In this document: piece by piece, positions 4,350 to 40,666 of the stretch
How positions within the stretch are numbered: position 1 is the first letter of the stretch
Layout of the letters: every line of letters begins with the position of its first letter
From: a virus
Lineage: Duplodnaviria; Heunggongvirae; Uroviricota; Caudoviricetes
Length of the DNA: 40,666 nt
Reading direction: 5' to 3' (one strand)
IMG/VR virus record: IMGVR_UViG_2563366836_000013
Span: 1 to 40,666 of that record
Position numbers and translations under genes: made by a program
The notes under the pieces: generated by a model
Seen by the model: only the letters and a program-made list of their open reading frames with translations
The model's database searches: none
Told to the model about the DNA's origin: nothing

Positions 4350-5174
4350 TCAGGCGGTGAAAGTACCAATAAAGGTTTCTACTTTGCTGTCTTTGAATTT
4401 CTCAACAAGCAGATCACGAAATTCGTTAGCCATTTCTTCCTGCACCGCTTCCAGCTGAATAATGCGCAGAACCAGTACAGGACGATCGCCAGTGATAATG
4501 CTGAGGCGTAATTTAAACGGACGTTCTTTCAGACCTTCAAACGGAACGCATTTAAATTCAAATGCCACTGGCATAATGTCTTTGGTCTTCGCTTCGACAG
4601 ACTCCATCAGGGAGCGTTTGCCGCTGAAGTCATTATCTTCAAAATCAGCGGTCTGGTTTGCTTCAATCGTGATTTTACGGACTGCCGCAGCCGCTTTTGT
4701 TGCTTGAATGGCGTCACCATTAGCATCAAAGCCCACAAGGTAGTCGGCCCAGTCTTCGATCCATTCTGCCAGTGACTTCTGGGAGTTACGCTCGCCGTTA
4801 ACAGACAACAGAGCAGAGAACGGTGCTGTCTTTTTCAGTTTGAGAGTGGCAGTGTTATCTGCGTGACCTGGCTCATCAATAGTACCCAGGTTAAGCACAC
4901 TGACGGCACGCATATTATCGGCATCGATAAAGCAGCGGGTGCCTTCATCTGCAAGATCTTTAGAATAACGGGTAAAATCATCGATGCTGGCAGTGGAAAG
5001 TGCACCACGGAAACGGAAGCGATTTAAATTAAATTTTTCCAGATCATGAATGCGGAAATTCTCAGGCAATGCCACAGCATCGGCACCAATCTTACTGATA
5101 ATTTCATTAACACCCTGAGCAGAAATAAGGGCATGGATTTGATTAATTGCGGTTGCGTCTAAGTTCTGAGACAT
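4350..5174 (-). CDS. YfdQ-like protein (DUF2303 family), function unknown
   Basis: 274 aa, same length and gene order as CPS-53 yfdQ; family recalled from memory. Confidence 0.65.
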
Positions 5175-5239
5175 AATAAGTCCTCACTATATAAAGATAT
5201 TCAGTGATGAGATAAATAATCAGTTTATTACGAACGATA

Positions 5240-5602
5240 TTAACGACCTGCTGCGCGGAGTTTTCCGTCAGGTTCACCGGCAAGAGTCAGTAATTGTCCC
5301 TGGTCTTCCTGCAGAATAGTCAGGCGACCACCGCGATTGACATACATCGGCGTTTCGGTGGTGTCTTCTTCGGAAATTTTCCCGCGGTTAGTCGGGCGAA
5401 TATATGAGAGTTTGTGTTTGATTTTCACACGGTTCTCATCAAATGGTTCGATTTCCAGGTTGAGTGAGACCTTACCTTTGGTTTTCGTGTTCATCACACC
5501 GGAAGCGACTTCACTGAGAACTGCGCCGATTTTGGTTTCAAATACGCCGCCGTCCAGCTCCCCGATAAATGCCTGCACATCAGTACTGCGTTCGCTAGCC
5601 AT
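5240..5602 (-). CDS. YfdP-like hypothetical protein (120 aa)
   Basis: Start at ATG (MASERSTDVQAFIGEL...) preceded by AGGAG 8 nt upstream; the longer ORF-track version (to 5920) runs into GC-rich non-coding sequence. Confidence 0.6.
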   Translation of the reverse strand: MASERSTDVQAFIGELDGGVFETKIGAVLSEVASGVMNTKTKGKVSLNLEIEPFDENRVKIKHKLSYIRPTNRGKISEEDTTETPMYVNRGGRLTILQEDQGQLLTLAGEPDGKLRAAGR

Positions 5603-6071
5603 TTTGCTGCTCCTCATCATATCGACCCTGCAAGGCCGATTAGTTTCTCCACAAAACAGAGAAGAACACCTGTGGTGGCCGCCGCCCGGATGGATTGGGT
5701 TATGAGCCCGTCGTCCGGTGATGCTCTTCTCTGTTTTGTAAAAAGGACGGTACCAGCCGGAAGCAAGGGTACAAGCTGGTACCGCCAGGACTACACACAG
5801 CATAAAGTTGTGGTGCCGGGTGCCTCCCGGTGCCTGGCGAAGGTTGCACACCAGGCGGGTGGGTATCCACAGAAGGTCGACTGTCAGCCTCAACCTTAAC
5901 CCGCGTGCGCTGAGCCGCATTCACCACAACGCTAAGGATTCTCTCTGGTTGAAAATACTTAGCTGTTATGTGCCTGCTTTTAGCCACATCAGGCGAGGTG
6001 GACCTGGTTATTCCCCAACAACAAGGATTCGGTTAATCTGGATATCCCCAACAACAATAAGAGTATTCAAT

Positions 6072-6587
6072 GTGATCGCTGAATTAACGGCAGCAATGAC
6101 GGCTATTCGTGAAACAGCCCAGATTGCAAAACTAATGAACGAGGCAAAAACTCAAGCTGAAGTAAATGCGGCTATTGGTGAGCTGAACTCAAAGCTTGCG
6201 TCTATTCAGCGCGAATGCGTGTCTCTCGTTGAACTGGTGGGCTCTTATCAAGAAATAAATGCTTCTCTCAAAGCTAAAATTGCAGAATTCGAAAACTTTG
6301 AGGCTCAGACGGAAGGCTATATCCTTAACCAACTTGAGTCGGGTACTTTTGTATACTCGAAGGAGGTAATCGTGAACGGTGGCAGCATAACCATGCATCT
6401 TTGCCCAAAATGTTTTGGACAAAAGATAGTATCGATACTTCAACCATTCCCGGTTAGCGAAGATGAGCTTTTTCATAAAAGCAGGTGCCTCCACTGTGAA
6501 AATAAGTTTCTGATGAATAAAAATCCGGATTACGTATCGCCTCCATCCATTGAGGAGTTGTCCAGAAAACTTAACGGCAATCTGTAG
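6072..6587 (+). CDS. Orphan coiled-coil / zinc-ribbon protein, unknown function
   Basis: About 171 aa from GTG 6072 (AAGAG upstream; alternative ATG at 6096); N-terminal heptad-like helix, C-terminal CPKC-x24-CLHC; opposite strand to all flanking early-left genes; followed by a hairpin terminator. Confidence 0.5.
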   Translation: MIAELTAAMTAIRETAQIAKLMNEAKTQAEVNAAIGELNSKLASIQRECVSLVELVGSYQEINASLKAKIAEFENFEAQTEGYILNQLESGTFVYSKEVIVNGGSITMHLCPKCFGQKIVSILQPFPVSEDELFHKSRCLHCENKFLMNKNPDYVSPPSIEELSRKLNGNL

Positions 6588-6625
6588 ATTACTACTGTTG
6601 TGGATATCCAGATTGTTAAAGAGCT

Positions 6626-6650
6626 AAGCGTCCTGTAGGGCGCTTTTTTG
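6626..6650 (+). terminator. Rho-independent terminator after the orphan zinc-ribbon gene
   Basis: AAGCGTCC-TGTA-GGGCGCTT stem followed by TTTTG. Confidence 0.55.
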
Positions 6651-6734
6651 TTGCTAACGAATCATCCTGGACTTCATATGCCCCAGGCGGCTACTTCGTG
6701 GGCGTCCTGCCTGTTCGTTATCTATGATATAAAA

Positions 6735-6805
6735 TCTAACTTAACTTAGTTATTATGGCAAGAGAAAACACCAAACTTTTCTTAGTTCGGTGCCTTAGTT
6801 AGAGA
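6735..6805. promoter_or_regulatory. Putative OL operator cluster (repeated CTTAGTT half-sites) / PL region
   Basis: Several copies of ACTTAGTT / CTTAGTT just beyond the 3' end of the repressor gene; same motif recurs in the cI-cro intergenic region. Confidence 0.4.
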
Positions 6806-6814
6806 AGAGAGGCC

Positions 6815-7441
6815 TTAGAGTTCGTATTGAACTCCTTTGACTACACCAATGATAAGGCAATTACCATTGATAGGGATGTTGGGATACCGAGGATTTAATG
6901 GCACTAAAAACTTTTGAGGGCCATCGATGACTAATTTTTTTACTGTAGCTTCGTTTGTTCCATCAAGTCGAGCGATGACTATTTTTCCATGACGAGGTTC
7001 TGCATCTGGATCTACAATCACTGTTGCGCCTTCTGGTATTGTTGGGAGGCCATTAGGGTTAGTCATGGAGTCACCTTTAACCTCTAATGCAAATGAGTTA
7101 TCACCAACCTTTAATGATGTATCTACCCACTTGTCCACTTCACTAAACACTTCTGCTGCCCTGCACTCAGTAAACTGCCCAGCCTGAACCCACGATATTA
7201 CAGGAACTCTGCGCATGTTTGTGACGAGTTTGCCTTCAAACTCAGCACCATAAAGAATGTAATCTATTGACGTATTGAAGAACTTCGCTAATTTCGAAAG
7301 TGCCTCCCCACCAGGGGTATTGATGTCTTTCTCCCAGTACCCCACAGCAACGTCGCTTACTCCACAAAATTTACCCAATTCTTTCTGGGACGTTCTGGTA
7401 ACTCTTCTCAGAGCTTTTATACGCTGACCAACCGTTTCCAT
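6815..7441 (-). CDS. CI-like repressor (XRE HTH N-terminus plus LexA/S24-type autocleavage domain)
   Basis: 208 aa; N-terminal HTH (QKELGKFCGVSDVAVGYWE), C-terminal S24 peptidase-like region (GDSM...K); divergent from the cro-like gene. Confidence 0.9.
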   Translation of the reverse strand: METVGQRIKALRRVTRTSQKELGKFCGVSDVAVGYWEKDINTPGGEALSKLAKFFNTSIDYILYGAEFEGKLVTNMRRVPVISWVQAGQFTECRAAEVFSEVDKWVDTSLKVGDNSFALEVKGDSMTNPNGLPTIPEGATVIVDPDAEPRHGKIVIARLDGTNEATVKKLVIDGPQKFLVPLNPRYPNIPINGNCLIIGVVKGVQYEL

Positions 7442-7538
7442 AGGAGCACCATTTCTTTAATTACTAAGTAATCTTAGTTTTTATTGACCAAAGATAGATT
7501 TGTAATTAGCATCTAACAAAACTTAGTTTGGAGGGCGT
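7442..7538. promoter_or_regulatory. OR / PR-PRM region between repressor and cro-like gene
   Basis: Palindromes ATTACTAAGTAAT and AAACTTAGTTT (CTTAGT half-sites), a TTGACC -35-like hexamer, and GGAGG RBS before the cro-like ATG. Confidence 0.5.
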
Positions 7539-7739
7539 ATGACAACTGACGATATCGAAAGCTACTTCGGCAGTATTGAGAAAGTTGCTGCTTTTTTCGG
7601 CATAACAACTGAAGCCGTTTATCAGTGGCGAAACCGTCCGGGCCAGTTAATTCCAAAAGGACGTGCAGCAGAAGCTGCATATAGAACTTGCGGACGGTTG
7701 CCATTTAAACCTGAGCTTTATGAAAAATCTAATGGATAA
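7539..7739 (+). CDS. Cro-like HTH regulator (YdaS-family)
   Basis: 66 aa, FFGITTEAVYQWRNRPGQLIP resembles YdaS/Cro-type HTH; first gene rightward of the repressor; GGAGG RBS. Confidence 0.75.
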   Translation: MTTDDIESYFGSIEKVAAFFGITTEAVYQWRNRPGQLIPKGRAAEAAYRTCGRLPFKPELYEKSNG

Positions 7740-8334
7740 ATCGATTAACAGAAACCACAGAACGATGAGGCTAACCGTGGGTAAGCATCACTGGAAAGTA
7801 GAAAAACAGCCTGAGTGGTACGTGAAAGCTGTCAGAAAAACTATCGCAAAGTTGCCGGGTGGTTACGCTGAAGCAGCTGACTGGCTGGATGTAACAGAGA
7901 ACGCATTATTTAACCGCCTTCGTGCCGATGGCGATCAGATTTTCCCGCTGGGATGGGCAATGATTTTGCAACGTGCTGGTGGCACTCACTTCATTGCTGA
8001 TGCTGTGGCGCAGTCTGCAAATGGCGTCTTTGTGTCGCTTCCTGACGTCGAGGATGTGGACAACGCCGATATTAACCAGCGTCTGCTGGAAGTCATTGAA
8101 CAGATCGGCAGTTATTCAAAACAGATTCGTTCAGCAATCGAAGACGGTGTAGTGGAACCGCATGAGAAGACAGCAATTAACGACGAGCTGTATCTCTCAA
8201 TTTCGAAGCTGCAGGAGCATGCAGCACTGGTCTACAAAATCTTTTGCATTTCAGAAAGTAATGACGCCCGCGAGTGTGCAGCTCCGGGCGTCGTGGCGTC
8301 GATTGCTTCTGGTTGTGGAGAAACTAACGCATGA
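7720..8334 (+). CDS. CII-like regulatory protein (YdaT / Phage_CP76-like)
   Basis: Position immediately after cro; start set at ATG 7720 ([10 protein letters not shown]...), overlapping cro end; start uncertain. Confidence 0.45.
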
Positions 8335-27666: not shown

Positions 27667-27935
27667 TGAAAGAGCTTGAGTTAAAGAAACCGATTACCGC
27701 TCATGGCGAGACACTCTCCGTACTGGAGTTTGATGAGCCCACCGGGAAAGATGTCCGCGAGCTGGGGTATCCCTACCAGATGAATCAGGATGAGTCCGTC
27801 AGACTTCTGGCGCATGTTGTATCGAAATACATTGTGCGGCTGGCGAAAGTGCCGCAAAGCTCTGTCGACCAGATGTCTCCGGCAGACCTGAATGCAGCGG
27901 CGTGGCTTGTGGCTGGTTTTTTCCTCCAGGCCTGA
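27666..27935 (+). CDS. Tail assembly chaperone (G-like)
   Basis: 89 aa directly upstream of the tape measure gene; contains slippery T_TTT_TTC near its 3' end. Confidence 0.6.
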   Translation: MKELELKKPITAHGETLSVLEFDEPTGKDVRELGYPYQMNQDESVRLLAHVVSKYIVRLAKVPQSSVDQMSPADLNAAAWLVAGFFLQA

Positions 27936-28090
27936 CGGCTGAATACCTCACTGATCGCTTCTTTGACTGCGCCAGCTACTGGCGCATTAATCCCTTCGAA
28001 TTGCTGAATATGCCGATCAGTGAAATTCCCTTGCTGGTCAGTCAGGCAAACAGGATAGAGCAGGAGAAACGCGCACATGGCGGAATTTGA
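27902..28090 (+). CDS. Frameshift extension of the tail assembly chaperone (GT-like, -1 frame)
   Basis: -1-frame ORF overlapping the chaperone 3' end and the tape measure start; accessed via the TTTTTTC heptamer at 27917-27923. Confidence 0.45.
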   Translation: MACGWFFPPGLTAEYLTDRFFDCASYWRINPFELLNMPISEIPLLVSQANRIEQEKRAHGGI

Positions 28091-29909
28091 GCTTAAGGCG
28101 TTGATCACCGGTGTCGACAGGCTTTCTCCCGCGCTGTCGAAAATGCAAAAGAAAATCCGGGGATTTAAACGCCAGGCGGAAGAAGCGTCACAGGGTGGGC
28201 TGGCGCTTGGAGGCGGACTGGCAGCGGGTCTGACGCTTTCCCTGAAATCTTATGCCGATCAGGAAAACGCCGCCACCGGGCTGAAAGTCGCCATGATGGA
28301 TGCGAACGGCGAGGTTGGAAAGAGCTTTCAGGACATCAATAAACTGGCTATTGGCCTGGGTAATCAGCTACCCGGTACAACGGCTGATTTCCAGAACATG
28401 ATGCAGATGCTGGTGCGTCAGGGGATCCCGGCAGAAAACATTCTTGGCGGTGTGGGTAAAGCGACAGCTTATCTTGCGGTACAACTGAAAAAAACACCGG
28501 AAGCGGCTGCCGAGTTTGCCGCAAAGATGCAGGATGCTACCGGAACGGCGTCAAAAGACATGATGGGGCTGTTCGACACTATCCAGAAGGCGTTTTATCT
28601 GGGCGTTGACGATACCAACATGTTGTCCTTCTTCACTAAAACCAGCTCTGTTCTGAAGATGGTGAACAAGGACGGTCTTCAGGCTGCACAGAGCCTTGCC
28701 CCCATCAGCGTCATGATGGATCAGATGGGGATGAACGGGGAGTCGGCAGGTAACGCCCTGCGAAAAGTTATCCAGTCCGGATTAAGCGTTAAGAAAATCA
28801 GGGACGTCAATAAAATCATGGCCCGCCAGAAACTCGGGGTACAGCTCGATTTTACTGACGGCAAAGGGAGTTTTGGCGGTCTTGATAACATGTTCAGGCA
28901 ACTGGCAAAGCTGCGAAAACTGACCGACGTTAAGCGAACAGGCGTACTTAAGGCAATATTTGGTGATGATGCCGAAACCCTTCAGGTGGTCAATGCACTA
29001 ATCGATAAAGGAAAGGATGGCTACGATCAGATCCAGCAGAAGATGAATAAACAGGCCAGCCTGAATAAACGTGTTCAGGCTCAGCTTGGTACGCTGTCCA
29101 ACCTGTGGGAGGCAATGACGGGGACCGCAACTAACGGTCTTGCAGCTATTGGCGGCGCATTTTCTGGTGACGCCAAAAATATCACGCAGTGGCTGGGGGA
29201 GTTGGGGGAGAAATTCACGAAGTTTGCGGATGAAAATCCCCGGGTTATTCGCGGCGTCGTCGGGCTTGCTGCCGGTCTTGCGATTCTGAAACTGGGATTG
29301 ATGGGCGTTGGCGGTGCCATCAGTATTGTCAGCAGGATCATGTCGATGACGCCGATTGGCATGATTGCGACGGCGATAGCCCTGGCTGCGGGATTAATTA
29401 TCACTAACTGGGATGTTGTCGGACCTTATTTTAAGAAACTCTGGGAAACCATTGGTCCTTATTTTGAGGCTGGCTGGGAACTCCTTAAGAAAGTTTTTGC
29501 CTGGTCGCCGCTGGGGATGGTGATCAATAACTGGGGACCGGTTGTTAAGTGGTTTCAGGATATGTGGGACAAGCTGAAGCCAATTATTGAGTGGTTTACC
29601 GACAGTTCCGGTGACACGGTCGATGCCATTAACTCTGCGCAGTGGGGCGCGGGTGCTTATGATGCTTATGGGACGGGAATACCGGCGCGGGGATACACAC
29701 CTTATCCGGCGGTGGATCCGGCTCAGTCAAACAACGCCTCCGATGCCACAGGCCCGAATCCCTTCATGATTAACAAAGCTTCTGCGCCAAAAGTTGATGG
29801 CGAGATCAAGGTTTCATTTATGAATATGCCACCAGGTATGCGGGTTACGGAAACACGTTCCAGTGGCATTGATATTAATCACGATGTTGGGTACACCAGA
29901 TTTAGGTAA
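28077..29909 (+). CDS. Tail tape measure protein
   Basis: 610 aa, helical with C-terminal hydrophobic segments; position after chaperone. Confidence 0.85.
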   Translation: MAEFELKALITGVDRLSPALSKMQKKIRGFKRQAEEASQGGLALGGGLAAGLTLSLKSYADQENAATGLKVAMMDANGEVGKSFQDINKLAIGLGNQLPGTTADFQNMMQMLVRQGIPAENILGGVGKATAYLAVQLKKTPEAAAEFAAKMQDATGTASKDMMGLFDTIQKAFYLGVDDTNMLSFFTKTSSVLKMVNKDGLQAAQSLAPISVMMDQMGMNGESAGNALRKVIQSGLSVKKIRDVNKIMARQKLGVQLDFTDGKGSFGGLDNMFRQLAKLRKLTDVKRTGVLKAIFGDDAETLQVVNALIDKGKDGYDQIQQKMNKQASLNKRVQAQLGTLSNLWEAMTGTATNGLAAIGGAFSGDAKNITQWLGELGEKFTKFADENPRVIRGVVGLAAGLAILKLGLMGVGGAISIVSRIMSMTPIGMIATAIALAAGLIITNWDVVGPYFKKLWETIGPYFEAGWELLKKVFAWSPLGMVINNWGPVVKWFQDMWDKLKPIIEWFTDSSGDTVDAINSAQWGAGAYDAYGTGIPARGYTPYPAVDPAQSNNASDATGPNPFMINKASAPKVDGEIKVSFMNMPPGMRVTETRSSGIDINHDVGYTRFR

Positions 29910-29940
29910 AGACGAACAGGGAGGGCCGCCCTCCCTGAAC

Positions 29941-30351
29941 TTACTGTGCGAACACGCAATTTCGGCCTGATGGGGAGCCGACAATTCTGGACATTTTTCC
30001 GCAAATAACAGTTACTTGTTCTCCTTTTTTAAGAGCAGCAGCTGTTGATTTTTCAGAGTCTTGCATCTCCATTCTTGCTGGCATGAATTCATTTTCAGTT
30101 CTGAATTTAATAATTATAGAGTCAGTAAAGTCCTTATCAATGGATTGTACGATACCTCTAACGGCGATTAATTTACCTTTTAACTGTTCATCGGTAGCGA
30201 CTTCATTTTCTTCATACTCTTTAAACAGCTGTCGAGCAGTAGTGTTGTAGATTTCTTTTTGCGGTGCCGCAGCTTCCGTATCGGATGAGTATGAAGAATT
30301 AGAGCCTTTATCGTTACCAGTAAATATTACTACTGATAATAAATATGGGAC
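29941..30351 (-). pseudogene. 5'-truncated OB-fold (tRNA_anti-like / BOF-type) gene without start codon
   Basis: Minus-strand frame open for 136 codons: ...LLSVVIFTGNDKGS...ARQLFKEYEENEVATDEQLKGKLIAVRGIVQSIDKDFTDSIIIKFRTENEFMPARMEMQDSEKSTAAALKKGEQVTVICGKMSRIVGSPSGRNCVFAQ*; no ATG/GTG/TTG before an internal Met; in-frame stop immediately upstream; AT-rich. Confidence 0.45.
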
Positions 30352-30355
30352 TTAT

Positions 30356-31681
30356 ATGACGTGGAAAGACAGACTTCAGGACGCGTCATTTCGCGGCGTG
30401 CCGTTTAAGGTTGAAGAAGAAAGTGCGGGAACCGGTCGCCGTGTGGAAACACATGAATACCCGAACCGCGACAAACCCTATACCGAAGACCTGGGGAAAA
30501 TCACTTTTCGCCCGTCCATCACGGCTTATGTGGTGGGAGATGACTGCTTTGACCAGCGCGATCGCCTGATTGACGCGCTGAATAAACCCGGTCCCGGCAC
30601 GCTTGTCCATCCGACATACGGTGAGCTGAAAGTCTGTGTTGACGGAGAAGTTCGGGTCAGCACATCGAAGAGTGAAGGGCGTATTGTCCGCTTTGACCTG
30701 AAGTTTGTCGAAGCGGGAGAACTCTCTTACCCCACTTCAGGTGCGGCGACGGCGCAGACGCTGATGTCATCCTGTTCTGCACTGGATGACTGCATCAGTG
30801 ACAGCTTCAGAGGTTTCAGTATCGATGGCGTGGCGGATTTCGTGCAGAACGACGTCGTCGGTAATGTCAGCACAATGCTTGGGTATGTTTCTGATGCGAT
30901 GAAAGTGGTGGATTCTGCCGTATCGGATGCTGCCAGGCTGTTGCAGGGGGATATCTCGGTACTTCTGCCGCCGCCATCGTCAGGCAAAAATTTCGTTGAG
31001 CAGGTGCAGAAAATGTGGCGTACCGGGAAACGCCTTTATGGTAACGCCAGCGACCTGGTCACCATGATCAAAACGCTTTCCGGTGTCAGCCTCGGCAGCG
31101 ATCTGCAACCGCGCGGCGTCTGGAAAACGGACAGTAAAACCACCGCCACGGCTACGCAGCAGCGTAACGTGGTTGCCAGCACCCTTCGTACGACCGCAAT
31201 CAGCGAAGCGGCGTATGCCGTCACCCGATTGCCTGCGCCAACAACTTCCGCGGTGATGCAGAATGCCGCAGTGGGGCAGGCAACAACACCTGCGCAGAGC
31301 ACTGGCTGGCCTTCCGTCACGCATCCGGCACTGAACAATGCACCGACGGTGAAAAACACAGTTGACCTGCCGACGTGGGAAGAACTGACTGACATTCGCG
31401 ACACACTGAATACGGCAATTGATAAGGAGTTGTCCCGTACAACCAGTGATGCGCTGTTTCTGGCGCTGCGCCGGGTGAAAGCAGATCTGAATGCGGATAT
31501 CAACACGCGCCTTGAACAGTCTGCACGGATCATTCAGCGCACGCCGGATGAGGTTTTACCCGCGCTGGTGCTGGCGGCGACCTGGTTTGATAACGCGGCG
31601 CGTGACGCGGACATTATCCGGCGTAATGCCATTACGCATCCCGGATTTGTGCCGGTGATCCCTCTGAAGGTGCCAGTGTAA
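30356..31681 (+). CDS. DNA circularisation protein (Mu gpN-like) of the baseplate
   Basis: 441 aa, N-terminal MTWKDRLQDASFRGVPFKVEE... typical of Mu N-like proteins. Confidence 0.8.
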   Translation: MTWKDRLQDASFRGVPFKVEEESAGTGRRVETHEYPNRDKPYTEDLGKITFRPSITAYVVGDDCFDQRDRLIDALNKPGPGTLVHPTYGELKVCVDGEVRVSTSKSEGRIVRFDLKFVEAGELSYPTSGAATAQTLMSSCSALDDCISDSFRGFSIDGVADFVQNDVVGNVSTMLGYVSDAMKVVDSAVSDAARLLQGDISVLLPPPSSGKNFVEQVQKMWRTGKRLYGNASDLVTMIKTLSGVSLGSDLQPRGVWKTDSKTTATATQQRNVVASTLRTTAISEAAYAVTRLPAPTTSAVMQNAAVGQATTPAQSTGWPSVTHPALNNAPTVKNTVDLPTWEELTDIRDTLNTAIDKELSRTTSDALFLALRRVKADLNADINTRLEQSARIIQRTPDEVLPALVLAATWFDNAARDADIIRRNAITHPGFVPVIPLKVPV

Positions 31682-36992: not shown

Positions 36993-38468
36993 CTAAAGTG
37001 AATCTATTCCATTTTTCCAAATAAGAACTTTTTTGTCTTGTATTTTATGAGTGCTATCAGGCTGCCCAAACTGTTTTATGGCCTTTTCCTCTTGCTCTAC
37101 ATCATCAGCAATTAAAAAATTAGCTCCTTTTTGGTACCATTCTTTTTTTGATAACCAATTATATGGTGTGAATCTATCACCATACGACTCAAATGGAGCT
37201 ACGTTGATATCACTAAATCCAGCAACAGATGATGCAAACCAAAATGATGCATAACCTCTTTGTAGTTTATTTTTTATTAAGAAATCTCTTAATTCTATTG
37301 TAATATCATTTTTATTAACAATGTTTTTTGTTGTTGCCATCGTTGGCAACGATAACGCAATAACGATTAATGATATTAGTAAATTTGTCTTCACTGGTAA
37401 GGAGAAAGAATTTCTAGCAATCACAATTGACATGAAAATAAACGTTGGGACTATGTATCTAATTGAGAAAAGATTTGTTGGCCTGTCACTTGAAACATAG
37501 GCAATCAACATGACTAATGATGATACAATAAGAACCTGGTCAATAAAATCAATTTCTTTAAATTTAAGAATGTTTTTATAAGATAAAAATAAGAATACAA
37601 AAATGAAAAACACCTTTATCATGGTGAATAATGAGTTAAAGCTACCTATCTCCATTCCAAACGCGTACCCACCAAAAAATTTGAATACGCCCATGATAAC
37701 AAGAGATATGTTGCTTGTTATTTGTTGAAACTCTACTATGTGAGGTTTGGTTATGCCTGGCAGGTTAAATCCACCAAGCTTAATGAATATAAATGATATG
37801 AGCTCAGCAATAAATATAGATGATATAGTGAAAACCAACAATAACAAATCATTAGTATTCAACGAATCTCTTTTCATTAGAGAAGCATACATTCTATATA
37901 TGCAAACAAAAACTATAGGTATTATAAAGGCATATTTAGATATATCATCACTAAAAACAAGCAACGATAACATAAATACATATGGAAAAAGTAATTTTAA
38001 ATCATTTTTCTTTCTGTATCTATCTATTATTAGTATGATCGCCAGCATGTAAATGTACGCACCAATATGTATACATGCTATAAGCATTATACTTGATGAG
38101 AAAACCGTTGGAATTCCAAATACAGAAAGAACAGGCCATAACGATGCCCTGCTTTTAGTATGAGAGATATATAGCGATAGTGTTACTAACATAGACATGA
38201 AAATTCCAGGCACAATATAGTACAGATTTTCATTAAATCCTATTATTTTTATCGCTATAGCATATGGTATTATTTCTGTGAAATAGAATGATACAGTTGA
38301 TAAATCCCACCCACTGAGAAAAATATTTCCTTCAGTAATATCCCTTGCCTCTCTGAATGAAGACATGACATCTGAGTTTGGAATTATGTTTTTAGCAATC
38401 ATTGAGTAAATTATTGATAATACAATAAATGTTGCCAGCCAATATAAAAGCTCAAGCTTCTTGCTCAT
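36993..38468 (-). CDS. GtrC-type serotype-specific O-antigen glucosyltransferase (polytopic membrane protein)
   Basis: 491 aa, very AT-rich, many TM helices, immediately downstream of gtrA-gtrB (ATGA-coupled). Confidence 0.8.
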
Positions 38469-39382
38469 TTTTTACCCTTAAGTACATACTTTGGACGCTG
38501 CTTAACTTCAATGTAAATTCTACCAATATACTCACCGAGCACTCCAATCCCAATTAACTGGATGCCGCCAAGAAATAATATTGATACAAGAATTGAAGGG
38601 TATCCAGGTACATTATTACCAAAAATTAATTTATCAATTATCATCCATGAACCGTATGTAAATGATATACATGCAATAAATAACCCAATATAGGTCCACA
38701 TGCGAAGCGGGAATGTTGAGAAGCTAGTGATCCCTTCCAGCGCCAAGTTCCATAGCTTCCATCCATTGAACTTTGTGCTTCCTGCAACGCGTTCTGCTCG
38801 CGCATATTCTACGACATCGGTTCGACCACCAACCCAGCTCAGCACACCCTTCATAAACAGGTTTCGTTCTGGCATGAGCTTAATGTTTTCTACTACTTCG
38901 CGAGACATGAGCCGGAAGTCGCCAACATTCTCTTCTATCTGAGGGTTGCTGATTTTGTTATGAAGTTTATAGAACCACTCAGCAGATTTACGCTTCAGCC
39001 TGCTGTCAGTGGAGCGGTCAGAGCGTTTAGCCAGAACCATATCTGCACCGGCCTGCCATTTCTCTATCAAGTGAGGAATAACTTCGATAGGGTCTTGCAG
39101 ATCAACGTCAATCGGGATAATTGCCTCCCCGGTAGCATGGTCCAGACCTGCGAACAGGGCGGGTTCTTTGCCGAAGTTACGTGTGAACGACAGCGAAACA
39201 ACAAGCGGGTCGGCAACAGCAAGCTCGTTGATAATTGATTCTGTAGCGTCTTTGCTGCCATCGTTTATGAAGACTATCTCGACTTCATGCTGCTGAAGCC
39301 CTTCAAATTCGCGCACAGTTTTATAAAAAATAGGTATCGTGGCCTCTTCGTTAAAGACCGGAACGACTAAAGAAATTTTCAT
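38465..39382 (-). CDS. gtrB: GtrB bactoprenol glucosyltransferase (GT2 family)
   Basis: 305 aa, [13 protein letters not shown]...FINDGSKD...DVDLQDP GT2 motifs and C-terminal TM helices. Confidence 0.92.
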
Positions 39383-39741
39383 TTCGCATCCCTAAAGACA
39401 ATGAACTTTGAATAGACGAAACCGCACACCAGGCTGATGGCGGAGAAGGTGACAAGAGTTATCATCGGGGGAAGTGCGCATCTATCAGCAGCCCATCCAA
39501 CAGTAGCACTGAGTGTTCCCATGAACCCGACATATAACATGTAGCGCATCGTTGTAGTTGATGCTTTGAATGTGAATTTTGCATTCGCGAAGAAGCTAAA
39601 ACTCACAGCCACAACGAAACCTGCGAAGTTTGCCAGAGCCTGATTGGTATGCGCGGCATAGATACATACACCAAAAACCACCCAGTGTATAAGTGTGTTC
39701 AGCACACCAATCGAGGTGTACCTTGCAAATATATTTAACAT
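39379..39741 (-). CDS. gtrA: GtrA flippase (bactoprenol-linked glucose translocase)
   Basis: 120 aa, four TM helices, GtrA-like; first gene of operon. Confidence 0.9.
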
Positions 39742-40189: not shown

Positions 40190-40666
40190 TTAACTAAACA
40201 TCGCAGTAATCGAGGCGCTTGCCAGAGAATGGAAATGGACGTTAAACCCGACCATCGCGCCGCTGGCACCTTCATCGACATCAATACGTTCTACATCCAG
40301 CGCGTGAACGGTAAAAATGTAGCGATGGGTTTCGCCTTTCGGCGGCGCTGCACCATCGTACCCGGTTTTACCAAAGTCGGTACGCGTCTGCAAAACGCCG
40401 TCTGGCATTGCTACCAGACCAGAGCCAAACCCTTGCGGTAATACGCGGGTATCAGCGGGTAAATTAACAACTACCCAGTGCCACCAGCCGGAGCCGGTTG
40501 GCGCATCCGGGTCGTAGCAGGTGACAACAAAACTTTTCGTTCCCGCAGGAACATCATCCCACGCCAGATGCGGTGAAACATTATCGCCATCGTAACCCAT
40601 GCCGTTAAAGACATGACGATGTGGCAACTTATCGCCATCGCGCAGATCATTACTGATGAGTTTCAT
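40190..40666 (-). CDS. ybhB: YbhB (PEBP / UPF0098 family protein), host gene flanking attB lambda
   Basis: 158 aa MKLISNDLRDGDKLPHRHVFNGMGYDGDN...; start codon at the window edge. Confidence 0.85.
   Translation of the reverse strand: MKLISNDLRDGDKLPHRHVFNGMGYDGDNVSPHLAWDDVPAGTKSFVVTCYDPDAPTGSGWWHWVVVNLPADTRVLPQGFGSGLVAMPDGVLQTRTDFGKTGYDGAAPPKGETHRYIFTVHALDVERIDVDEGASGAMVGFNVHFHSLASASITAMFS

Follow-up and report, generated by a model that had tools for sequence, protein, structure and literature searches.

Introduction

The prophage protein Ltp, whose fold is made up of helix-turn-helix repeats, targets the tape measure protein and in this way prevents the injection of DNA. It is encoded by S. 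thermophilus TP-J34 and is described as a small, surface-tethered protein that functions in superinfection exclusion (PMC3952083). HK97 gp15 is also expressed from the prophage, and it blocks DNA entry in a manner that depends on the tail of the incoming phage (Cumby et al. 2012, reviewed in PMC3594210). Further described proteins share an architecture with the gene product discussed below. The OB domain of TcdC matches the Pfam family PF12869 by profile comparison, and TcdC homologs are found between the CI repressor and integrase genes in Lactobacillus phages (PMC3575817); the C-terminal domain of TcdC is reported to be surface-exposed (bioRxiv 10.1101/872283). AbiP from Lactococcus and PdpSau from an S. 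aureus prophage confer phage resistance; PdpSau is described as an abortive-infection agent, and a reference cited in the same paper presents AbiP as a nucleic-acid-binding protein that is anchored in the membrane and mediates abortive infection (PMC10127798).

Here we describe a locus in an E. coli prophage at which a gene for an OB-fold protein lies antisense to the tail operon, directly beside the tape measure gene, and has lost its start to a 142-bp deletion. We compare this deleted allele with intact alleles from closely related prophages, weigh whether the remnant is still a working gene, and relate the intact protein to the systems above.

Results

A low-GC gap behind the tape measure gene

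The window, by which we mean the whole 40,666-nucleotide stretch of DNA that was analysed, corresponds to a prophage such as that of E. coli 042 (877,843-918,508). Its early and head regions comprise an integrase, lambdoid early genes and an HK97-type head, its tail is of the contractile Mu/SfV type (sheath, tube, chaperone, tape measure, DNA circulation protein and baseplate), and a gtrA/gtrB/gtr-specific O-antigen glucosylation cassette adjoins ybhB. The host element is an SfV-like, serotype-converting prophage that combines lambdoid early genes with a Mu-type contractile tail. An earlier note on this DNA, made from its letters alone, had drawn attention to about 440 bp of low-GC DNA between the tape measure stop and the gpN-like start, and our ORF map agrees: the tape measure stop at 29909 and the gpN-like start at 30356 enclose a gap of 446 bp with a GC content of 0.401. 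The minus-strand ORF within the gap is lower still (0.384), compared with 0.517 for the tape measure gene, 0.562 for gpN and 0.506 for the window. The features that delimit the locus are as follows.

28077-29909, plus strand: tail tape measure gene, the left flank
29910-30355, no strand assigned: low-GC gap, the remnant of an antisense moron cassette (ORF map, GC content, comparison with SfV and SfI)
30356-31681, plus strand: Mu gpN-like DNA circulation gene, the right flank
29908-29937, minus strand: intrinsic terminator, a 9-bp GC-rich stem followed by TTCGTCTTT, directly after the moron stop codon (terminator scan and fold)

The junction between the tape measure and gpN-like genes measures 45 bp in SfV and SfI, 446 bp in the window and 588 bp in the intact alleles described below. 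Since SfV and SfI, which are related phages, have so short a junction, the gap is additional DNA that was inserted at this site. The terminator folds with a free energy of -18.4 kcal/mol (z=-2.7) and is kept in the intact alleles; its stem is followed by a T-run on the minus strand only, so that plus-strand transcription of the tail operon should pass through it. Extra DNA between otherwise adjacent genes, a deviating GC content and a terminator of its own are among the hallmarks of a moron as defined by Juhala and Hendrix (PMC3594210), and these three are present here; a promoter of its own, another hallmark, is taken up below. We conclude that the gap is a decayed single-gene moron that lies antisense to the tail genes on either side, tape measure and DNA circulation. 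When 50,697 phage records were searched at the DNA level, this moron was not found in an isolated phage, and the matches were to the gpN start only (SfI, SfII, SfV and SfIV); the homologs recovered by tblastn were all distant ones, from phages of Burkholderia, Bordetella and Klebsiella. The paper on SfIV also describes a moron, but another one, located between Q and the lysis genes.

An open frame with an OB domain and without a canonical start

The minus-strand frame comprises 136 codons, from 30351 to 29944, and ends at a TAA stop at 29943-29941. The earlier note had reported this frame together with a peptide from it, and its coordinates are right and its peptide is exact. It had further observed that no canonical start precedes an internal methionine and that an in-frame stop lies close to the gpN ATG, both of which hold: the earliest in-frame ATG, GTG or TTG is the methionine of MPARMEMQ at 30084, with none before codon 90, and the stop is the TAA read at 30354-30352. 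Because the first such codon falls at 30084, a start-based ORF listing gives only a 47-aa ORF. Lastly, the OB-fold-like domain that had been suggested from the translation was recovered by a profile search, in which the window ORF matches Pfam PF12869 (tRNA_anti-like OB-fold) over profile positions 23-130 of 146 with E=1.1e-16 and 61.1 bits, compared with a gathering threshold of 23.5 bits. The name tRNA_anti-like derives from fold similarity only.

A 142-bp deletion removed the start of the gene

Using a 571-bp query across the gap, we recovered 70 complete E. coli genomes that match over at least 80% of the query, and these carry two allele forms, one collinear with the window and the other about 142 bp longer. 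When the window was aligned with two intact alleles, it proved to be exactly 142 bp short. The missing segment comprises codons 1-24, which encode the membrane anchor, together with the start codon, the AAGGTGAT ribosome-binding site and about 70 bp of upstream DNA. The resulting frame can be dissected into the following parts.

29941-30315, minus strand: retained native coding sequence, codons 25-148 plus TAA, with the Ser/Thr-rich linker and the complete OB domain (intact-allele alignment, PF12869)
30314-30316, no strand assigned: junction of the 142-bp deletion, with TTA microhomology (TTA stands at both ends of the segment in the intact allele; alignment and junction strings)
30316-30351, minus strand: twelve spurious codons, VPYLLSVVIFTG, joined in frame by chance (translation, alignment and junction strings)
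30352-30354, minus strand: in-frame TAA marking the 5' limit of the open frame, separated from the gpN-like ATG by one base
30001, minus strand: GAA to GGA substitution (E130G), on the deleted background only; carried neither by the strain 042 sub-lineage nor by any of the 19 intact alleles that were examined

The remnant thus consists of 124 native codons fused to 12 codons of formerly non-coding DNA and has no canonical start codon. In the intact allele, the DNA of window positions 30317-30355 is non-coding and lies about 70-110 nt upstream of the ATG; the 39 bp ahead of the gpN-like ATG are the same in both forms. These relationships bear on two further points of the earlier note. It had described a hydrophobic N-terminal stretch, which is correct as a translation and wrong as a part of the protein, as it is the formerly intergenic VPYLLSVVIFTG read in frame; the true membrane anchor, MKKLLKWILYIFIGLVIIGYFAG / LLKWILYIFIGLVIIGYFAG, is located within the deleted segment. 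What could be mistaken for a signal sequence is a hydrophobic 'N-terminus' that the deletion created. The note had also called the gene a recently truncated or frameshifted moron, and it is the truncation that stands. Alignment to homologous prophages, which had been proposed there as a way to find the lesion, located a single 142-bp deletion relative to the intact alleles, and conservation of the frame in relatives, on which the note had made its reading depend, is borne out by intact 148-aa alleles. A frameshift as the lesion is ruled out by the clean deletion. We likewise discarded the converse polarity, in which the intact allele would carry a 142-bp insertion, as diverged orthologs possess the N-terminus.

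Distribution and ancestry of the two alleles

A 71-bp query specific for the junction found the identical deletion junction in 16 of 5426 complete E. coli genomes, strain 042 included; SCU-482 is another strain with the deletion. Eight of these 16 assemblies have the identical length of 5,067,659 bp and come from chicken (Gallus gallus) isolates; they presumably represent one strain, which leaves about nine distinct strains with the deletion. The 142-bp segment itself is found in 56 complete E. coli genomes; the intact 148-aa gene is carried by about the same number of them (56) and by 17 IMG/VR contigs, and strains S19-651 and STEC388 are examples of intact-allele lysogens. All deleted copies that we examined, namely L001, L007 and four IMG/VR contigs, share one junction. 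Apart from the missing segment, the window sub-lineage differs from the intact alleles by one coding change, E130G, at a column that is mostly Glu in a 44-sequence family alignment, and the 042 sub-lineage by none. The deletion, as judged from these alignments, is one event and the derived state, and it is recent because so little else has changed alongside it. The persistence of the deleted allele in about nine strains shows that the loss is tolerated, and nothing more.

An N-terminus consisting of MKK and a transmembrane (TM) helix is retained by the orthologs that diverged phages (strain PE15 and L038-L040) carry at this position; the tail proteins of these phages share only 67-91% identity with those of the window. 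Because the orthologs retain it, the intact form is, on this comparison, the ancestral one, and it is under purifying selection, with dN/dS below 0.06 between orthologous alleles at saturated dS.

Expression of the remnant

Despite lacking a canonical start, the remnant is annotated as a gene. RefSeq/PGAP lists a 128-aa coding sequence at 29941-30327 in 16 of 16 genomes with the deleted allele and does not flag it as a pseudogene, thereby adopting the non-canonical start that the earlier note had kept as an alternative. Two elements of the minus strand are relevant to whether this product, or any other, is made.

30325-30327, minus strand: ATA codon, the RefSeq/PGAP start of the 128-aa 'OB-fold protein' (WP_071593209.1, WP_071821387.1), with no purine-rich Shine-Dalgarno sequence ahead of it
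30113-30140, minus strand: internal sigma-70-like site, TTGATA-16-TATAAT, 11/12 matches, within the coding sequence and also present in intact alleles (promoter scan)

A promoter scan of the window found no promoter-like site upstream of the frame on the minus strand, where the DNA beyond the junction now forms the beginning of gpN, a gene of opposite orientation. A consensus scan of three intact allele types likewise found no site with at least 9/12 matches upstream of the ATG, and inspection by eye picked out a weak TAGCCA-16-TATAAA candidate within the deleted segment. As the scan of the intact alleles did not find a promoter, we infer from position only that the deletion took one with it. 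The internal site has a weaker 9/12 version at the same place in a diverged ortholog, and it is probably a by-product of the AT-rich codons that specify a conserved SIDKDFTDSII motif.

Our preferred reading, which we hold with considerable confidence, is that the remnant is a young pseudogene that decayed through the 142-bp deletion, and we infer that it is unexpressed. Since a young pseudogene is still gene-like, RefSeq calls a coding sequence from ATA. In opposition to this, one could argue that the frame is a working gene that starts at a non-canonical codon (ATA 30327 or another rare codon), its product being a soluble OB-fold protein of the cytoplasm whose function has changed or been retained. 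The PGAP call of a 128-aa 'OB-fold protein' in all 16 genomes, the 136 codons that remain open, the complete OB domain and the presence of the allele in several strains all fit this argument; however, the open frame beyond the junction amounts to just 12 formerly intergenic codons, the ATA has no preceding Shine-Dalgarno sequence, and the place where a promoter-like site would be expected is occupied by the opposing gpN start and contains none. Such a product would also lack the N-terminal anchor that is present in 44 of 44 aligned family members, its two invariant cysteines would sit in the reducing cytoplasm, and the non-conservative E130G change arose on the deleted background only. We therefore consider a working gene improbable.

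We give slightly less credence again to the use of only the internal 47-codon ORF, from ATG 30084 by way of the site at 30140-30113, which would yield either a short piece of the C-terminus or an antisense RNA of regulatory function that ends at the terminator. This ATG, on direct reading of the sequence, has no Shine-Dalgarno sequence, and its 47 residues would form under half of the OB barrel as modelled. The 11/12 sigma-70 consensus match about 30 nt upstream of the ATG, which is shared with intact alleles, and the terminator downstream do speak for this reading, but the hexamers are codons of the conserved SIDKDFTDSII motif and are explained by coding in AT-rich DNA, and the diverged ortholog has only the weaker 9/12 site. 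Finally, the missing canonical start, the AT-rich, intergenic-looking DNA and the strand opposite to the operon might be taken to mean that the frame is a chance ORF in an AT-rich spacer and was never a gene. To this we assign a negligible probability, as it is refuted by homology (the PF12869 match at E=1e-16, and 90 homologs down to E=1e-89) and by the purifying selection on the orthologs; the intact 148-aa alleles, which are 99% identical, and a confident OB-fold model add to the case against it. The reading as a young pseudogene is the one that we carry forward.

Sequence, fold and topology of the intact protein

The intact product has 148 aa (MKKLLKWILYIFIGLVIIGYFAGNNDKGS... / MKKLLKWILYIFIGLVIIGYFAGNNDKGSNSS...) and is named 'OB-fold protein' in RefSeq (WP_000734912.1). 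It consists of a positively charged N-terminus (MKK), one TM helix, a disordered Ser/Thr-rich linker and the PF12869 OB domain. In the family alignment of 44 sequences, M1 and K2 are nearly invariant, C129 and C144 are invariant, and each of the 44 has a TM helix; PF12869 is carried by 89 of 89 homologs with Pfam data, out of 90 homologs. An AF2 model of an intact ortholog, built from 44 homologs, has a mean pLDDT of 86, which rises to block averages of more than 94 from residue 51 onwards, and comprises a helix (residues 2-22), a disordered segment (24-40) and then an N-terminal helical cap and a beta-barrel. Searching the PDB with Foldseek, the top matches to this model are five chains of 3F1Z (E=5e-5, TM-score about 0.53-0.65, identity 16-19%), followed by the anticodon-binding OB domains of tRNA synthetases.

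The anchor of the intact protein looks like an uncleaved TM helix (FAGN, without a lipobox cysteine). Elsewhere in the family, one member (P0081) has a cytoplasmic zinc ribbon, a single TM helix and then the OB domain, another (P0080) has a cleavable signal peptide, and several are named 'OB-fold putative lipoprotein' in their sources. The positive charge carried by the N-terminal MKKLLKW, the order of zinc ribbon and TM helix in P0081, the signal peptide of P0080 and the 'lipoprotein' names all point to an OB domain outside the cytoplasm. The predicted arrangement of the intact protein is thus an inner-membrane anchor with a periplasmic OB domain.

Gene context and a putative role in exclusion

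The intact allele matches PHROG 8545, annotated as 'superinfection exclusion Sie-like' in the moron / host-takeover category, with E=1.5e-49 over residues 1-146 and profile positions 14-176 of 177; as a label, this has the status of an annotation only. This match extends over the full length of the intact allele, whereas the window copy is truncated to residues 25-148. Our literature search found no functional study of the PF12869 / Sie-like family, PADLOC models gave no match, and NCBIfam gave nothing meaningful.

We then considered where homologs of the gene are found. Among 80 IMG/VR loci, 25 have the arrangement of tape measure gene, antisense OB gene and gpN gene. In the other 55, the upstream neighbour is often repressor-like: it carries Phage_CI_repr in 11 of 51 cases, HTH_3 in 11 of 51 (the two sets may overlap) and Peptidase_S24 in two. 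The repressor gene points the same way in the loci that were inspected, at an upstream distance of about 17 bp in L042 and about 180 bp in L060. On the downstream side of these 55 loci, P2 gpD is the neighbour in 11 of 52 cases, and others, which include neighbours of a defence type, carry AAA_15/AAA_21, SIR2, TIR or UvrD domains. Individual phages provide examples of both settings. Burkholderia phage Carl1 encodes the homolog on the strand of its immunity repressor and two genes downstream of it, with an annotated terminator behind the homolog and tail gene D as a neighbour; in Klebsiella phage ST405-OXA48phi1.2 it is antisense inside the tail/baseplate module, and in L058 it is antisense and adjoins the tape measure gene of another phage type. 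Pantoea and Serratia homologs that are 61-65% identical are located in chromosomal islands, where no phage genes could be recognised in their vicinity, which indicates that the family is not restricted to phages. Overall, gene context supports a putative accessory role for a protein expressed in the lysogen.

Based on these observations, we propose that the intact protein would be made in the lysogen and act at the envelope. Its most likely effect, by analogy to HK97 gp15 or Ltp, would be to exclude superinfecting phages at the DNA-entry step, and it may do so by way of its periplasm-facing OB domain, which would get in the way of the arriving tail tip, the tape measure or the DNA on its passage. 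We offer this working model, in which a periplasmic OB domain would block the tail tip, the tape measure or DNA passage, as a tentative one, a possible account of the protein and at present not a probable one. If it holds, the 142-bp deletion would have cost this prophage lineage its exclusion function. Similarly tentative is the extension of this idea to the family as a whole, in which TM-anchored, periplasm-facing PF12869 proteins would constitute a widespread superinfection-exclusion family of Proteobacterial prophages, acting on the tail and tape measure or on periplasmic DNA and carried as swappable cassettes at one of two places, next to the tape measure gene or following the CI repressor; we regard this generalisation as doubtful.

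Discussion

The locus itself is an ordinary decaying moron. At a practical level, it exposes an annotation error, in that RefSeq lists an intact 'OB-fold protein' from an ATA codon in 16 genomes. The broader lead is the family, because a small, envelope-tethered OB-fold protein recurs in many prophages at positions that are probably expressed in the lysogen, and natural pairs of intact and deleted alleles exist in E. coli. If the proposed role in exclusion is true, the delta-142 allele carried by the window and by strain 042 is a natural knock-out that stands beside near-isogenic intact prophages.

How closely does the intact protein resemble systems that have been described? Ltp differs in its fold; among the BFVD structural matches to our model is one predicted structure named 'Host cell surface-exposed lipoprotein', an Ltp-type name and a likeness in name only. 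Compared by architecture, TcdC of C. difficile, AbiP and PdpSau share with it an N-terminal membrane anchor and a C-terminal OB-fold, but they are Gram-positive proteins and have extra dimerisation or other regions. In 3F1Z, a putative nucleic-acid-binding lipoprotein of K. pneumoniae, we find another small OB-fold protein tethered outside the cytoplasm; it has a lipid anchor, whereas the E. coli prophage protein has a TM anchor and the window copy none. The comparison with HK97 gp15 is one of layout only, as gp15 is YebO-like, has no OB-fold and is not homologous. Gene 15 lies between the chaperone and tape measure genes of HK97, while the cassette in the window follows the tape measure gene and is antisense. 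Within these bounds, the two resemble one another in that each encodes a small inner-membrane protein from an add-on cassette beside the tape measure gene in the tail operon, each deviates in GC content, with a terminator of its own in the present cassette, and each has chromosomal homologs outside phages.

Apparent exchange and decay of the moron

The antisense OB-fold gene (the moron) that lies between the tape measure gene and the gpN-like gene seems, from sequence comparison, to be a cassette that closely related prophages exchange with one another. This reading follows from locus L041, an IMG/VR contig, because its tail proteins (positions 4552-8260, compared with 28077-31681 of the window) are near-identical to those of the window, at 98-100% identity, with gpN at 98% and gpP at 100%, while its moron is an allele of the type found in strain PE15 (about 71% protein identity). 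The tape measure protein of L041 is 90% identical to that of the window.

A second lesion was found in the same gene. In the OB-fold protein P0002 (161 aa, 8 member sequences), a frameshift after ...VICEK removes the last beta-strands together with the invariant cysteine C144 and replaces them with read-through sequence that extends into the terminator region. This lesion is independent of the one in the window and suggests that the moron has decayed on more than one occasion. The window's own remnant, the delta-142 allele left by a 142-bp deletion, carries no pseudogene label in RefSeq: in each of the 16 genomes that have it, PGAP enters an intact 'OB-fold protein' of 128 aa that begins at an ATA codon (for example, NC_017626.1 907783-908169).

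Neighboring features of the tail module and prophage end

Three further features were mapped in the window and one at the corresponding site of related phages:

27902-28090, plus strand: overlapping ORF of 62 aa in a different frame (from the ORF map), at the 141-bp gap that separates the stop codon of the tail assembly chaperone gene from the ATG of the tape measure gene (27935-28077)
30113-30140, minus strand: sigma-70-like site TTGATA-16-TATAAT, an 11/12 match to consensus, within the OB-fold coding sequence
36993-39741, minus strand, and 40190-40666: gtrA/gtrB (yfdG/yfdH-like) pair and a serotype-specific gene of 1476 nt, where the prophage ends beside ybhB, by analogy with strain 042
Locus 1145-1189 of L004 (SfV) and L005 (SfI): 'empty' moron site, with only 45 bp separating the tape measure gene from the gpN-like gene

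The 62-aa ORF resembles the programmed-frameshift extension that tail chaperones usually have. The internal sigma-70-like site is shared by intact moron alleles and takes a weaker form in a diverged ortholog; it is probably a by-product of coding, but a short antisense RNA that stops at the terminator could be driven from it.

OB-fold genes in Pantoea-type loci

In Pantoea-type viral loci (L042, L045, L046 and L050-L052, at about 5000-7350), a co-oriented trio is conserved in which a P2/186-type CI repressor is followed by an OB-fold gene, which lies 17 bp downstream of the repressor in L042, and then by a gene for a 267-aa protein without a Pfam or PHROG match. The OB-fold gene followed by the same 267-aa gene also occurs in Pantoea loci L010, L011 and L013, found with the OB-fold protein P0011, and the two may constitute an accessory pair of the lysogeny operon.

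Comparison with SfV and SfI

At the empty site of SfV and SfI, the 45-bp gap can form a hairpin with a T-run after it on the plus strand (AGTCCCACTCCGGTGGGATTTTTT), which has the appearance of a terminator within the tail operon. Given the gtr assignment by analogy with strain 042, the window element would be an SfV-like O-antigen-modifying prophage.
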